Shown: positions 6,578 to 19,156 of the stretch, piece after piece | How the letters are laid out: every line of letters starts with the position of its first letter | Numbering within the stretch: position 1 is the first letter of the stretch | Source: a virus | Taxonomy: Duplodnaviria; Caudoviricetes | Length of the DNA: 35,498 nt | IMG/VR virus record: IMGVR_UViG_3300026851_000019 | Location: 1-35,498 of that record | Reading direction: 5' to 3' (one strand) | Translations under genes and position numbers: made by a program | Notes under the pieces: model-generated | Databases searched by the model: none | The model's input: only the letters and a program-made list of their open reading frames with translations | What the model was told of the DNA's origin: nothing

Positions 6578-6766
6578 TTACCCACCAAACGCCTTGCATA
6601 TTGCGTTGGTTACTATGTGCTCCAAGTCTTCGCGTTGCCGTTTCATTAGCCAACCGGCCCGCGCTAAACTTTGTTCACTGTCGCTTTCATGCGGCAGTAA
6701 ATGCCGCCTTAAAATGAACAGCTGTTCCAGCTGATTCGATTCTATTGATTCGATCAGCCCTTCTAT
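6578..6766 (-). CDS. -1 frame extension of tail assembly chaperone (gpE'/gpGT-like), 62 aa, not in ORF track
   Basis: Open -1 frame IEGLIESIESNQLEQLFILRRHLLPHESDSEQSLARAGWL..AICKAFGG* begins at the A7 run (6766-6772) just before the chaperone TAG; no usable start codon at its 5' end. Confidence 0.8.
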   Translation of the reverse strand: MEGLIESIESNQLEQLFILRRHLLPHESDSEQSLARAGWLMKRQREDLEHIVTNAICKAFGG

Positions 6767-7029
6767 TTTTTTACAGTAATGTCCAACATCGGGCTAAATT
6801 CTGCTTTTAAGAAACTGGCAATTTGCAGCTCTGCACCTGGGTTGGTTTCCAGCAGTTTTTTAAATTCGTCTTTTTGCTCGGCGCTAATTGTGCGCATCGT
6901 AAAATTGTGTGATGCGGCGGTTACAGACTGGCCGCGCGCGGTGGCGTCTATAAAATCGCTGTGATCTTGCACGTTTACGTTGAATGCAAAGCTCATTGCG
7001 CCAATGTTTAAGCTGATTGTCTTTTTCAT
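6763..7029 (-). CDS. Tail assembly chaperone
   Basis: 88 aa, upstream of tape measure, ends GTA AAA AAA TAG. Confidence 0.8.
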   Translation of the reverse strand: MKKTISLNIGAMSFAFNVNVQDHSDFIDATARGQSVTAASHNFTMRTISAEQKDEFKKLLETNPGAELQIASFLKAEFSPMLDITVKK

Positions 7030-10837: not shown

Positions 10838-11325
10838 GCGGCACCGCCCGGCACGGTTTCAACTGCCACTTCTTCGGCCACGTTTACCGGGGCTATTGCC
10901 ACGCTGTAACGCTCACTTAAAAAATACACTGGGCCCGTTTCGTCCGGCACAATGTCGATATCGTCCATCAGTTCTATTGCGATGATCACTGTGGCGTTAT
11001 CGCTGCTGATAATATCGATATCAATTTCAGGATCAGTTAGGCCGTATTCGTCCCGTTCCCAGCCGCTGCTAAGTAAAAACGCGGCTAACATGGCCAACAG
11101 GTTGTATGGGCCAACCCTTAAATGCGGGAAATTTTCAATCGCGATAATGGCATTATGTTTCCACTTTGCTACCCGGTAAGCGCCCACGCCTAAGTCGGCA
11201 CCGTCAAGCATGAGTTTGCCGTTTTCTTGCCATGCGTCGATATTATTGGCTTGTATATAGGGCTTTAGGCTGGCCAGTAAAAATTCGGTTACTTGCTGCA
11301 GCTGGGTTTTAGTTTGCTCGCTCAT
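10834..11325 (-). CDS. Tail completion protein (gpR-like)
   Basis: Acidic 163 aa between L and S; IDAWQENG, IENFPH, IELMDDI.IVPDETGP. Confidence 0.75.
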   Translation of the reverse strand: MSEQTKTQLQQVTEFLLASLKPYIQANNIDAWQENGKLMLDGADLGVGAYRVAKWKHNAIIAIENFPHLRVGPYNLLAMLAAFLLSSGWERDEYGLTDPEIDIDIISSDNATVIIAIELMDDIDIVPDETGPVYFLSERYSVAIAPVNVAEEVAVETVPGGAA

Positions 11326-11783
11326 AATGAGTGCACCCCCGCGCGGCCAAGGCCTAACAGCAGCCGCACGCCATGGTTTGAGTGGGCCAAAATGATACTT
11401 TGCTGCTCGCTGTCGTTGGCTTTGTTGTTGCCCGCTGGCTTTTGGTCTACGGCAGAAAAATAACCCAGCAAATCGGCGTGGGAGCGGGCATACACCGCGC
11501 CCCGGTAAATGCTAATTTGCTGCTCGCTAAAATTAGGAGCTAGGTTTTCACCCAGGGTGAATGGGACGTCCGTGTCTGCGCTTGCCTGCTGTGCAAATCT
11601 AACCAGTTGTAACTTTATTTCGGCAACGCTGCGGTTTAGTGAGTCGGCTATTGTTGCCTCTTCAAAATATTCAGGGATGCGGCGGTTTTTGCGAAATTCA
11701 CCGGTCGATAGCACCGGCCAGCCGCTAGCGGCATCTATTTCAATGCTCTCTTGTGCTGGTGACTGAAAACCGAATCCGCTCAT
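11322..11783 (-). CDS. Head completion/stabilisation protein (gpL-like)
   Basis: GWPVLSTGEFRKNRRIP, YRGAVYARSHADLL. Confidence 0.85.
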   Translation of the reverse strand: MSGFGFQSPAQESIEIDAASGWPVLSTGEFRKNRRIPEYFEEATIADSLNRSVAEIKLQLVRFAQQASADTDVPFTLGENLAPNFSEQQISIYRGAVYARSHADLLGYFSAVDQKPAGNNKANDSEQQSIILAHSNHGVRLLLGLGRAGVHSL

Positions 11784-11938: not shown

Positions 11939-12682
11939 TTACAGCTTTGTTGCTTCTTCTAAGGCTCTTAGCCGCATGGCGATTTTGTTTCGTACTGTTT
12001 TTACCTGGGCATGCTTGTGTAAGCTGGCCGCTTTTTCTAAAAGTTGATCGGCCTGCTTAAGCCGGTTTGCATCGCCAACATGGCTGGGCGTAATTTCGCC
12101 GTTGGCTGCGCGCAGTAAGGCGAGCCCTGCAAACTTGTAGAATTTCGCGGTAACCTGCTCGGGTAACTTCCATTCGCTGGTAACGCGCTTGAACACGGTG
12201 CCAAAATACGGTTCGATGCTGTGGCCGTGTTCGGCTTGTTGCTCTGCCCAATCAAAAACGGTGTCGGCAATAAAGCCAGGCCACTTGCGCTTAATGGCAC
12301 CTGCCATGGGTTGCTGTAATTCAATGGCAGTAAATGCAAGCTCAAGCCCACGGCCCAGATCGCCAATGTCAAACAGCCACACAGTGCAATAAGCAAAAAT
12401 AGGGTTGTCATGGATCCGTTCCTTCTCGCTGGCCGCGCTGCGGCTTTTTAGATACTCATCGACAATCGGTAGCCACTTAGGCAGCAACTTGTCGCGCTTG
12501 TGGGCTATTTTGTCTGCCCGTCTTTCAAAGGCTTTTAGCCTTTTTAAATCTGCCTCCAGCTCTATCAGCTGTAGGTGCAGGCTGGGCGCGTGTTCAGCGT
12601 TGCCCGTAAGCCTGACTTGTTCTAACTGCTTTTCGGCTCGGCGGCTTTCTTTCCACGCGAGGATGGCTGCGCCGCCGACGGC
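11939..12682 (-). CDS. Terminase small (endonuclease) subunit, gpM-like; frame open to 12694 and probably entered by -1 frameshift
   Basis: SLHLQLIELEADLKRLK..DKIAHKRDKLLPKW (upstream of TTG 12487), VWLFDIGDL, WKLPEQVTAKFYKFAGL. No ATG/GTG/TTG between the in-frame TGA (12695-12697) and 12487. Confidence 0.88.
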   Translation of the reverse strand, partial: AVGGAAILAWKESRRAEKQLEQVRLTGNAEHAPSLHLQLIELEADLKRLKAFERRADKIAHKRDKLLPKWLPIVDEYLKSRSAASEKERIHDNPIFAYCTVWLFDIGDLGRGLELAFTAIELQQPMAGAIKRKWPGFIADTVFDWAEQQAEHGHSIEPYFGTVFKRVTSEWKLPEQVTAKFYKFAGLALLRAANGEITPSHVGDANRLKQADQLLEKAASLHKHAQVKTVRNKIAMRLRALEEATKL

Positions 12683-13230
12683 TTTTTTAACTCTTCAGTC
12701 GCTTCTTTTAACTCGGCCGTGGCTTGGCCAATATCTTCGGCGCTGTAGGCAAGCTGGCTGGCTGTGTCTTCCAGATCACCTGTGGCGGTGTTCACGGTTT
12801 CAGCGGCGGCATTAACATTGGCTGCGGCATCTTCTACCTGTGCGGCGGCGTCTTCTACATTGGCCGCGCTTTGGCTTAATTCGTCTGCCGTTTGCGCTGC
12901 TGTGTCGCTTGGCTCGGCGGTTTGGTTCAAGGCTTTTTCAGTGGTGGCTACTTCGGCCAGTGCTTTGCTATCAACTGTCATAACTGCGGTTTCGTCCGAG
13001 CCATCTGCCAGATCAAAGCCGGTTACAAACGAAAAGCCGTTTCGCTCTGCGGTTTCAATCAATGCCTTGGCTTCATCAATCGCGCATTCATACTGGCAAC
13101 CCAGCAAAATAGCCAATAGCGCTACGGCTTCGTTTTCTGGTGCGGGTGTTGCAGCTTGCTGCGTTGTGGTGCTGCCTTGCTGGGCGCGCTGCGCTTCGCG
13201 GCGTTTTTTAAAATTGGCAATGGCACTCAT
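12622..13230 (-). CDS. Ala/Glu-rich coiled-coil protein (202 aa), 0-frame partner of gpM frameshift
   Basis: ATG at 13230 after AGGT; basic N-terminus MSAIANFKKRR; heptad-like SAANVED-AAAQVED-AAANVNA repeats; overlaps the gpM frame. Confidence 0.8.
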   Translation of the reverse strand: MSAIANFKKRREAQRAQQGSTTTQQAATPAPENEAVALLAILLGCQYECAIDEAKALIETAERNGFSFVTGFDLADGSDETAVMTVDSKALAEVATTEKALNQTAEPSDTAAQTADELSQSAANVEDAAAQVEDAAANVNAAAETVNTATGDLEDTASQLAYSAEDIGQATAELKEATEELKKPSAAQPSSRGKKAAEPKSS

Positions 13231-13255
13231 ATTTTTTACCTGGCTGGTTGTATTA

Positions 13256-13277
13256 ACCGGTGGCAACTGCCACCGGT
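13256..13277. repeat. 10-bp perfect inverted repeat after capsid gene (attenuator or mRNA stabiliser candidate)
   Basis: ACCGGTGGCA-AC-TGCCACCGGT; no U tract on the coding strand. Confidence 0.6.
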
Positions 13278-13312: not shown

Positions 13313-14347
13313 TTAAGGCGTTGGCTCTGGAGCTGGGCCAATATTTACCGCGGCTTCGTCTACTGCACCGTAGGCGCTGTACTCTTCCACGGCGTAACCT
13401 TCAAAGCGCCAATACTTGTCTTCCCAGCGTTTGCGGTCTTCTACGTTCTCGCTCTTGCGTTGGCGGGTACCGCGCTGGGTGTAGCAGTGCAGGTTTTCCA
13501 GCATGGTTACTACAATGCGTTTACCAGGGAAAAACGGTGGCGTGTAAGCCCGTAAACCACCAATGGATTTATCCATCATTTGTGCGGCTACGCGCTCACT
13601 AGGCTTATCGGCTTGGTTCATCAGCTTGGTTTGGGCTGCGGCGGTTAAGTCGCTACCAATTAGCACCACTAAGCGCGGGTCGTTGCGGAACTGCTCAGGG
13701 ATCAGGGTGTTTTTAATTTCCGTAACAATGGCATCTAGCGTTTTGTATTCGCCTTCGCGTAGCTCACGTGTTGCATCTGGGTTAAAGTAAATTTCGTCTG
13801 TCATTACCTGATCAGGCGCTTTTTCTTTTACCAGTTGGTGCCAGCCTTTGTTAACGTCTTGCCCCAGTGGGTTGGCAGCTGGATCCGTGGTGGTGGCTAT
13901 TGATGTGCCGTTAAAGCCCACACGCAATACATCCAGTGCAAAGCGTAGTGTGGCGTTTTGGCTCATCAGCTGCATAAACTCGCGCTCGTTACCGGCGTTC
14001 GCCCAGGCGGCCATGGTTGACCAGGTAACAAAGGCGCAGCTGTCTGTTTCAATCAGTTCGTAGGTGTTACCGTCTACTGTTTGGCCGGAGGTAAAACGGC
14101 CTGATGCGCTGCGGCCTGTTGCAATGGTATTGCTACCAACGTTAACTACCTGACCTTTAATCTGGTCCACGTCCATCATGGTGATCAGTTTTAAAAATTC
14201 TACTGATTCCAACATGGCCGCACGTAAGCGGGTTTCCATTGGGCTGGTTACGGCAAACTGTTTGCTGACATCTGGCGTGTCGTACGCTTTGGCCAGTGAA
14301 GCGCTGTAAGCCAGTGCGCAGGATATTGCTAATTTGGTTAAGTTCAT
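13313..14347 (-). CDS. Major capsid protein, P2 gpN family
   Basis: KQFAVTSPMET.LRAAMLES.EFL, ALDVLRVGFNGTS, PLGQDVNKGW, PPFFPGKR. Confidence 0.95.
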   Translation of the reverse strand: MNLTKLAISCALAYSASLAKAYDTPDVSKQFAVTSPMETRLRAAMLESVEFLKLITMMDVDQIKGQVVNVGSNTIATGRSASGRFTSGQTVDGNTYELIETDSCAFVTWSTMAAWANAGNEREFMQLMSQNATLRFALDVLRVGFNGTSIATTTDPAANPLGQDVNKGWHQLVKEKAPDQVMTDEIYFNPDATRELREGEYKTLDAIVTEIKNTLIPEQFRNDPRLVVLIGSDLTAAAQTKLMNQADKPSERVAAQMMDKSIGGLRAYTPPFFPGKRIVVTMLENLHCYTQRGTRQRKSENVEDRKRWEDKYWRFEGYAVEEYSAYGAVDEAAVNIGPAPEPTP

Positions 14348-18373: not shown

Positions 18374-18401
18374 TTGTTTAGGTTTTTTACCTACGTATAA
18401 T
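18374..18401 (+). promoter_or_regulatory. Putative sigma70 promoter for cargo genes
   Basis: TTGTTT-N16-TATAAT; a second TATAAT at 18361. Confidence 0.45.
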
Positions 18402-18450
18402 GCGCACACTCAGGCTGATTAACAGCCTGTTTTCTTCAATGGAGCGTCAA

Positions 18451-18738
18451 ATGTCTGTTTTCTTGATAGTGTTGAAAGAGCCGGTTGATCCCGAAAAAGC
18501 TTCTGAGCTGCGGGAAAAATGCAGTATGGTTTTTGGGCAACATAACATAAAGGAAATTTGCGCTGGACAAATTTTAATTTCATCTGAAAAAATTTTTATG
18601 CCTGACGGTATTGCTAAAGATTTAGGCGATGAATTTAGCAGAGGTGAGTTTGGTTCATATTTGTTAGTTCCTGTTCACGCATACTGGGGCTTTCATGACA
18701 GAACAATTTGGAACTGGCTATTAGAGAAAGGAATTTAA
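18451..18738 (+). CDS. Cargo protein, 95 aa, possible Cas2/VapD-like ferredoxin fold
   Basis: GGAG RBS then ATG at 18451; low GC; beta-alpha pattern and terminal YWGFHDRTIWNWL. Confidence 0.65.
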   Translation: MSVFLIVLKEPVDPEKASELREKCSMVFGQHNIKEICAGQILISSEKIFMPDGIAKDLGDEFSRGEFGSYLLVPVHAYWGFHDRTIWNWLLEKGI

Positions 18739-18739
18739 T

Positions 18740-19156
18740 ATGCCTAATATTGAACCCCCAAAACAAGAAGTTATTTCATCAGGCATGTCTGATAGCATAG
18801 CTATGCAGTGGGCTCAGCGGCAGTTAAATTCTCTTGAAGGTGAATTAAAACTTATTGAACAACAGCTCAATGCTATCGATAAAACAAACGCGTTGCATGA
18901 TAGAGATATTTCTGATTTAAAACAGAACATAACTAATCGCTTCGATAAGCTCGAAGCACTTTTGGAAAAAAACGCGACCAAAGTTATTGGGGATTTAGAA
19001 AAAGTTGAAAACAGAATTGCTAAAACGCTCGAAGAACACAAGACAGAGCTTAAATCTTTAAACAGATTAACCAACCGGTATATTGGCGGTCTTTCAGTGC
19101 TTGTTTTTGTAATTGGTATAATTGGCCTTGCCATTCGTTACTGGCCTGCCACTTAA
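18740..19156 (+). CDS. Cargo protein, coiled coil with C-terminal TM anchor
   Basis: Heptad-rich body followed by YIGGLSVLVFVIGIIGLAIRYW; AAGGA RBS; 1 bp from upstream gene. Confidence 0.75.
   Translation: MPNIEPPKQEVISSGMSDSIAMQWAQRQLNSLEGELKLIEQQLNAIDKTNALHDRDISDLKQNITNRFDKLEALLEKNATKVIGDLEKVENRIAKTLEEHKTELKSLNRLTNRYIGGLSVLVFVIGIIGLAIRYWPAT

Follow-up and report, generated by a model that had tools for sequence, protein, structure and literature searches.

The small terminase gpM of the P2-like phage carried by the window, as we call the whole 35,498-nt stretch of viral DNA analysed here, is best explained as the product of a conserved programmed -1 ribosomal frameshift out of an upstream reading frame, ORF1, and we put the probability of this explanation at about 0.88. 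The reading draws together a two-frame layout, a missing start codon, a slippery heptamer fixed base by base, a switch of coding constraint at that heptamer, and the presence of these traits throughout one branch of P2-like phages. A frameshift with a 202-aa short product and a 430-aa fusion had been proposed in a preliminary description of the sequence, and it draws strong support from the layout, the heptamer and the frame-specific constraint on codons, all of which are conserved. In P2, gpM acts with gpP in cos cleavage and packaging. The features discussed are collected in Table 1.

In the window, the portal gene Q and the large terminase gene P lie on the + strand, and the head block runs on the - strand in the order scaffold O, capsid N, ORF1, small terminase M, head completion L, R and S. 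After S, the - strand continues with sheath (DUF2586), tube (HP1 Orf24 family), lysis genes, tail chaperone, tape measure, baseplate and fibre; ogr, the replication gene A and an inovirus-like block follow. The gpM gene is placed in an O-N-M-L operon divergent from P-Q, with ORF1 inserted between N and M. A sigma-70-like site for an internal gpM promoter was sought on the coding strand between 11700 and 15600, and none was found. Genomes of Rheinheimera, Alkalimonas and Shewanella carry the named gpM proteins nearest to that of the window (80-82% identity).

Table 1. Features of the ORF1-gpM region and its neighbours, in order of transcription (positions in the window)
Feature	Position	Strand	Basis
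Major capsid gene N, upstream neighbour	13313..14347	-	PF05125
GC-rich 9-bp hairpin in the N/ORF1 intergenic region	13256..13277	-	sequence; hairpin in about 8 of the 12 relatives shown
SD-like AGGT ahead of the ORF1 ATG	13238..13243	-	SD-like core also in 72/85 relatives
ORF1, 202 aa, 0 frame, ATG start	12622..13230	-	open reading frame
TGA closing the gpM frame, three codons ahead of the heptamer	12695..12697	-	sequence
Slippery heptamer A_AAA_AAG, predicted -1 shift site	12682..12688	-	sequence, relatives
gpM part, P2-type small terminase, 247 aa, -1 frame	11939..12682	-	PF05944 E 6e-31; phrog_74 E 4e-60
Two-frame overlap: ORF1 tail and first gpM helix	12622..12681	-	coding constraint, junction comparison
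8-bp stem	12638..12678	-	arms 12678-12671 / 12645-12638; present in the window, not conserved
Alternative AUC start site: GGCGG (Gly-Gly codons) 7 nt ahead of ATC	12662..12676	-	junction comparison
Head completion gene L, downstream neighbour	11322..11783	-	PF05926

The gpM frame is open from 12694 to its stop at 11941-11939 (251 codons), and the first ATG, GTG or TTG within it is a TTG at 12487, codon 70. Profile matches begin well before any such codon, at codon 19 for phrog_74 and codon 43 for PF05944, so the earlier remark that the startless stretch nevertheless encodes gpM-like sequence is borne out. The PF05944 score is 107.6 bits, against a curated cut-off of 29.4. The gpM part is predicted to be all-helical (pLDDT 82, pTM 0.75); its fold gave weak TPR-type matches (best E 0.0045), and no solved structure related to it by sequence was found. 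Small terminases of Peduoviridae, such as K139 orf19, HP2 orf19, phiO18P terS and those of SMHB1, ESSI-2 and YenM324 (PF05944, phrog_74), resemble the window protein in their above-cut-off family match, in their identity to it (40-47%) and in their position between N and L. All six phages have a single gpM gene with its own annotated start 0-20 nt past N; in contrast, the window has an additional gene between N and a gpM devoid of a standard start. An own in-frame ATG right after N is likewise present in all 58 more distant gpM loci (41 + 17).

Among 90 distinct junctions, the stretch between the shift site and the SLH motif of gpM is free of ATG, GTG and TTG in 81. Stops in the -1 frame within 8 codons of the heptamer are found upstream of it in 64/90 junctions and downstream of it in none. 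The first residue after the predicted shift lies 33 aa ahead of the SLH motif (32-34 aa in three deep members), and the distance from the own Met to this motif is 33-34 aa in phiO18P and in three further loci (L204, L205 and L207). This agreement suggests that the shift site stands approximately where the ancestral start codon stood; in K139, SMHB1 and ESSI-2 the distance is 29-30 aa, and for these outgroups the match is inexact.

As the preliminary description stated, ORF1 reads TTA AAA AAG, which places A_AAA_AAG in phase for a -1 shift into gpM; the predicted fusion has 183 + 247 = 430 aa. Relatives were drawn from named phages, GTDB genomes, viral contigs and metagenomes, and loci with gpM more than 55% identical were treated as close (n = 225, a redundant set that counts certain contigs twice and also contains the record of the window itself). 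The two-frame layout and the in-phase heptamer are kept in 223/225 of them (179/180 + 44/45), the two others (L063 and L269) being contigs that start downstream of the site. A further ten loci in which gpM was not matched at E 0.01 were left uncounted (L098, L158, L175, L195, L200, L201, L220, L221, L225 and L230). The 225 loci reduce to 110 distinct junctions (90 + 20), 108 of which carry A_AAA_AAG and two A_AAA_AAA.

The heptamer is conserved beyond what the protein needs. The codon preceding Lys-Lys encodes Leu, Ile, Val or Ala and invariably ends in A, in genes where CTA and ATA each account for 13% of the codons for their amino acid (Leu and Ile, respectively). On a quick tree of 90 distinct gpM proteins, the first base of this codon, which supplies the first A of the heptamer, changes 19 times and its third base never. 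The wobble positions of the heptamer change 0, 0 and 1 times on the same tree, compared with 11-26 times for ten upstream wobble bases. The other Lys-Lys pairs encoded in N, ORF1 and gpM number 150, and only 11 of them are spelt A_AAA_AAG.

The frame under coding constraint changes at the heptamer. Of the single-base differences before the site, a share of 0.49 is synonymous when read in the ORF1 frame and 0.19 when read in the gpM frame; in the 17 nt past it, the values are 0.21 and 0.70, respectively. These counts come from 73 junctions (L081 was excluded for its insertion), and the pairs compared are not independent.

The layout is found throughout one branch of P2-like phages, in Shewanella, Pseudoalteromonas, Colwellia and Rheinheimera, within which gpM proteins diverge by up to about 40%. 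Quick maximum-likelihood trees, rooted at the midpoint only, were built from 44 frameshift-type proteins (selected from 90 at <90% identity) and 43 ATG-started ones, with ten loci that were cut or had no clear start kept out. The frameshift group occupies one side of a single branch, with SH-aLRT support of 100 for all columns and 93 after removal of the N-terminal columns; one gain and no loss of the layout would be the simplest reading of these trees. A Lys-Lys purine run is present in the gpM frame of 4/41 distant loci, each time downstream of the own ATG.

A single continuous ORF in relatives, named beforehand as a finding that would speak against recoding, did not appear in three protein searches. 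No in-frame ORF1-gpM fusion was seen among 7,995 candidates of 437-2000 aa, a search that weighs little, nor among the best 150 of 204 matches to an ORF1 profile, in which relatives covering the full profile have 72-249 aa and long matches hit the heptad part only. None was found among 93 close gpM proteins either (search range 135-433 aa), the longest of which has 253 aa. ORF1 and gpM as separated genes were not met among the members examined.

Two cultured Pseudoalteromonas phages, C5a (Catalunyavirus) and vB_Psp_PY3, share the two-frame layout and the heptamer, and they are the only phage records with ORF1 matches. Of the two proteins compared, gpM is 74% identical to that of the window and ORF1 39-40%. 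Their records list a hypothetical protein and a truncated terminase of 176-178 aa, whose start lies about 65 codons downstream of the shift site, and no frameshift is annotated in the displayed features.

The question of what stimulates the shift is the weakest point of the mechanism. The preliminary description had spoken of a strong dnaX/IS3-type signal, composed of the heptamer and an 8-bp stem. The heptamer half of this claim stands; the hairpin half does not, and the wording was overstated because the stem is not conserved. In the window, the stem begins just 3 nt past the heptamer and belongs to the minimum-energy fold (-20.8 kcal/mol), but it does not stand out clearly from chance (z -1.67 over 52 nt, and -1.23, -0.77 and -0.02 for three longer pieces). 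All 8 pairs are present in 3/90 junctions and at least 6 in 34/90, and the stem may help in part of the branch. As a conserved stimulator it was rejected: 60.4% of cells are paired, versus 59.4% after shuffling. No covariation above shuffles was detected in 42 sequences, and the consensus fold reaches only -2.2 kcal/mol. Individual fold energies of the 60 nt 3' of the site range from -2.8 to -25.6 kcal/mol, with z < -2 in 11/90 junctions.

An internal SD sequence that promotes a -1 shift usually lies about 10-14 nt upstream. An SD core 7-22 nt upstream of the heptamer is present in 34/90 junctions compared with 2/450 control windows, an excess that may follow from the codons, and it is absent from the window. 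Across the 90 junctions, no stimulator shared by all was found, be it a 3' stem-loop or a 5' SD. According to PMC4066793, a 3' stem-loop or pseudoknot is usual, though not always present, at bacterial -1 sites; in E. coli, A_AAA_AAG ranks in the top three motifs when accompanied by stimulators, and heptamers devoid of them gave 2-10 times a background of 0.055%. Given this low yield, a bare site might give less than 1% fusion. Either little gpM suffices or a further stimulator exists. The 110 junctions would be a natural series of A_AAA_AAG sites in which the shift, if it takes place, does so with no shared RNA structure.

In the mechanism we favour, ribosomes would begin at the ORF1 ATG, the two tRNA-Lys on AAA AAG would re-pair one base back, on AAA AAA, and past K183 the chain would proceed in the gpM frame, at the place where gpM of the phiO18P type has its Met. 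We infer these three steps jointly and regard them as very probable. The outcome would be a plentiful 202-aa short protein and a rarer 430-aa fusion. With moderate confidence we take the shift to be inefficient, since no shared stimulator was found, and an inefficient shift would lower the dose of gpM and tie it to the level of the short protein.

The role of ORF1 can be approached through its predicted shape. Residues 1-19 are predicted to form a basic N-terminal helix (net +4), followed by a variable middle with two short helices and a loose acidic stretch, and then, at about 110-182, by an acidic 73-residue helix with Ala/Val/Leu heptads (net -17) ending at Lys-Lys. Residues 184-202 form a basic Ser/Lys-rich tail present only in the short product. 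Codons 2-11 are under purifying selection (70% of single-base differences are synonymous). The length of ORF1 ranges from 75 to 251 aa in 83 relatives, which makes a tether likelier than a ruler. No Pfam family was found for ORF1, PHROG returned weak compositional matches only, no viral fold matched its low-pTM model with an E value of 0.001 or lower, and the protein falls in two unnamed Atlas clusters. Its first helix bears a weak likeness to the first post-shift helix of gpM (HHalign probability 43%, E 2.5e-4, 18 columns), and no likeness to the N-termini of ordinary gpM was seen (probability 4%).

We consider it possible, and hold it tentatively, that, as in the G/GT tail chaperones, the acidic heptad helix brings the short product and the fusion together in a mixed oligomer with few gpM heads. 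The basic N-terminal helix, possibly a copy of the first gpM helix, would bind DNA or the prohead. The short and long forms of G/GT reportedly co-assemble, as Xu, Hendrix and Duda are said to have described in 2004. Co-assembly in the window is argued with low confidence from this analogy and from the position of the heptads. A further-reaching version is unlikely in our estimate: an essential small terminase would exist solely as a fusion, the short form would polymerise with it and display a copy of the terminase first helix as a scaffold or an anti-satellite decoy, and the shift would rely on an undescribed type of stimulator in conserved unstructured 3' sequence or in the nascent chain.

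It is about as conceivable as the mixed oligomer that the shift is real and sets the dose only. ORF1 would then be an unrelated late protein, such as an anti-pirate decoy or an extra scaffold, and its part of the fusion would be a passenger or would be cleaved; this possibility competes with the co-assembly step and not with the shift. The post-shift part does have a complete gpM length with its N-terminal helix, and the middle of ORF1 is highly variable. ORF1 extends 19-24 codons beyond the heptamer in 87/90 junctions, and the kept length of this Ser/Lys tail, which belongs to the short product alone, suggests a role of its own. Against a purely dose-setting shift speak the absence of members with the two genes separated or fused in frame, the fact that ORF1 is best kept in its first helix and in the heptads adjoining the junction, and the loss of the tail in L016 (Pseudoalteromonas obscura). 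In this locus (L016:2501-2510), ORF1 terminates directly past the heptamer (AAA AAG TAA), so the tail is dispensable there, and the stop codon may itself favour the shift.

A different route to gpM would dispense with the shift: gpM could initiate alone at an AUC codon (12664) served by a weak SD, GGCGG or GGAGG, that lies 7 nt before it; ORF1 would then be a separate overlapping gene. A non-canonical start, raised in the preliminary description as a refuting case, is a real rival, and as the only route we judge it improbable. ATC at +24 is kept in 80/90 junctions, in genes whose other Ile codons are 67% ATT and 20% ATC; mean anti-SD pairing in the region is strongest (-5.8 kcal/mol) at +9 to +12, 3' of the heptamer; and two database proteins (P0160 and P0154) begin at that codon. 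An AUC start nevertheless leaves the fixed heptamer unexplained, and the codons between heptamer and ATC already show -1-frame constraint. CTC replaces ATC in 3/90 junctions, and L081, with a 60-nt insertion open in both frames, lacks GG-GG before ATC. The putative SD is mostly GGCGG, made of the commonest Gly-Gly codons, and not GGAGG (68 C versus 16 A). A Ser codon in the overlapping frame accounts for the C of ATC: in L016, whose ORF1 ends at the heptamer, the codon is ATT. A 3-nt insertion displaces the ATC column in four junctions, which count neither way. Beside the frameshift, the AUC start could run as a minor route.

Less probable still is transcriptional slippage, in which RNA polymerase would add one A in the A6 run and the same fusion would arise from altered mRNA. 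An A run is present in all members and is extended to A7 in 2/110 junctions. Transcriptional slippage usually requires longer runs, and here the run is just six long. Its 3' G is kept in 108/110 junctions where an A would extend it, and the kept G fits the preference of tRNA-Lys for AAA over AAG described in the accessible text of PMC4066793. Sequencing error or prophage decay, to which a homopolymer site in a metagenome contig might point, is refuted by a layout conserved in 110 distinct junctions, isolate genomes and two cultured phages, by purifying selection on both frames, and by the T6 run being bridged with no indel in contigs (not raw reads) from three studies (runs X2, X3 and X8; X1, possibly the sample from which the record came, was left out of the count), which excludes the homopolymer error considered earlier.

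Among tailed phages, tail chaperones and extensions of the capsid or tail supply most of the conserved frameshifts known. If the programmed frameshift is true, the DNA-packaging machine joins the recoded systems, with a packaging subunit reachable only via the shift. Like lambda G/GT and P2 E/E', the window would pair a short 0-frame product with a minor -1 fusion sharing its N-terminal part, inside a morphogenesis operon; unlike them, it involves a head-packaging gene and not a tail gene, and no homology was found. The site lies in the head operon and not just before the tape measure, which, with the lack of a Pfam match for ORF1, sets it apart from the G/GT family. For the HK97-type cluster, shifting amounts to 6-7% (PMC3711429). 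The window also has a site of the ordinary kind: just ahead of the stop of the tail chaperone (gene 6763-7029), an A_AAA_AAA is found at 6772 (whole feature 6772-6578, - strand), and the open -1 frame matches DUF6890 (E 8e-14), as in a G/GT-type shift. This phage therefore likely uses two -1 sites.

The shift in E. coli dnaX yields the shorter product, and the predicted one in the window yields the longer, the opposite arrangement. The heptamer itself is identical to that of dnaX and of IS3-family elements, and the predicted tandem tRNA-Lys slip is the same (accessible text of PMC4066793); unlike there, a conserved 3' stem-loop is lacking and the 5' SD is patchy. The only terminase recoding named in the accessible part of a 2016 review (PMC5009743) is that of Hau3, a proposed translational bypass tied to UUA decoding and not a -1 shift joining two genes.

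The type of signal is already known; its use for making a packaging subunit was not found in print. In agreement with the earlier statement that no such recoding is known in P2-type terminases, no report of a frameshifted small terminase in Peduoviridae came up in full-text searches of papers outside subscription journals. The word "terminase" is absent from the main text of PMC3711429 and from two of its three supplementary files, as well as from the accessible part of the PRFect paper (PMC10885494), and "ribosomal frameshift" does not occur in the accessible parts of PMC10612066 and of a 2026 survey of P2-like viruses (PMC13100340). The recoding is missed by current annotations, and recognising it would correct those of the whole branch, where gpM is called short or from odd codons. 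It would also give a handle on P2-type gpM, whose N-terminus would tolerate or need a long arm. With C5a and PY3 in culture, the question can be tested now.

Several further observations concern ORF1 and its relatives. The shortest ORF1 (L188, from G488), of about 75 aa, consists of the first helix, three heptads and the tail, a natural minimal version; in L044 (the same contig as L152) ORF1 is broken. A G-x-D-L-A-x-G-x-D motif in the middle of ORF1 (about 13010-12980, - strand) recurs, by eye, in distant gpM proteins with an ATG start, within their N-terminal arms (L191 and L227-L229), and hints at an origin of ORF1 from such an arm. In 60/90 junctions (e.g., L001:2573-2582), G_AAA_AAG followed by TAA or TAG closes ORF1, a feature absent from the window. 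It is possibly a second, weaker -1 site 22 codons past the first, or it may merely reflect two-frame coding.

Elsewhere in the window, the hairpin between N and ORF1 could stabilise or step down late mRNA. A scan of 51 ORFs named no integrase family (noted for 20701-27233, - strand), and the record may accordingly be cut on its immunity side or interrupted by an inovirus. The inovirus-like block (26998-35342, + strand) beside the P2-like phage encodes a rolling-circle Rep (G2P families), a DUF2523 protein and a Zot-family assembly protein. A HicB-like antitoxin and a Gp49/HI1420-type addiction pair lie between the portal region and ogr (19216-20379, - strand), and two small genes follow the portal gene (18400-19156, + strand), the second with a coiled-coil profile.
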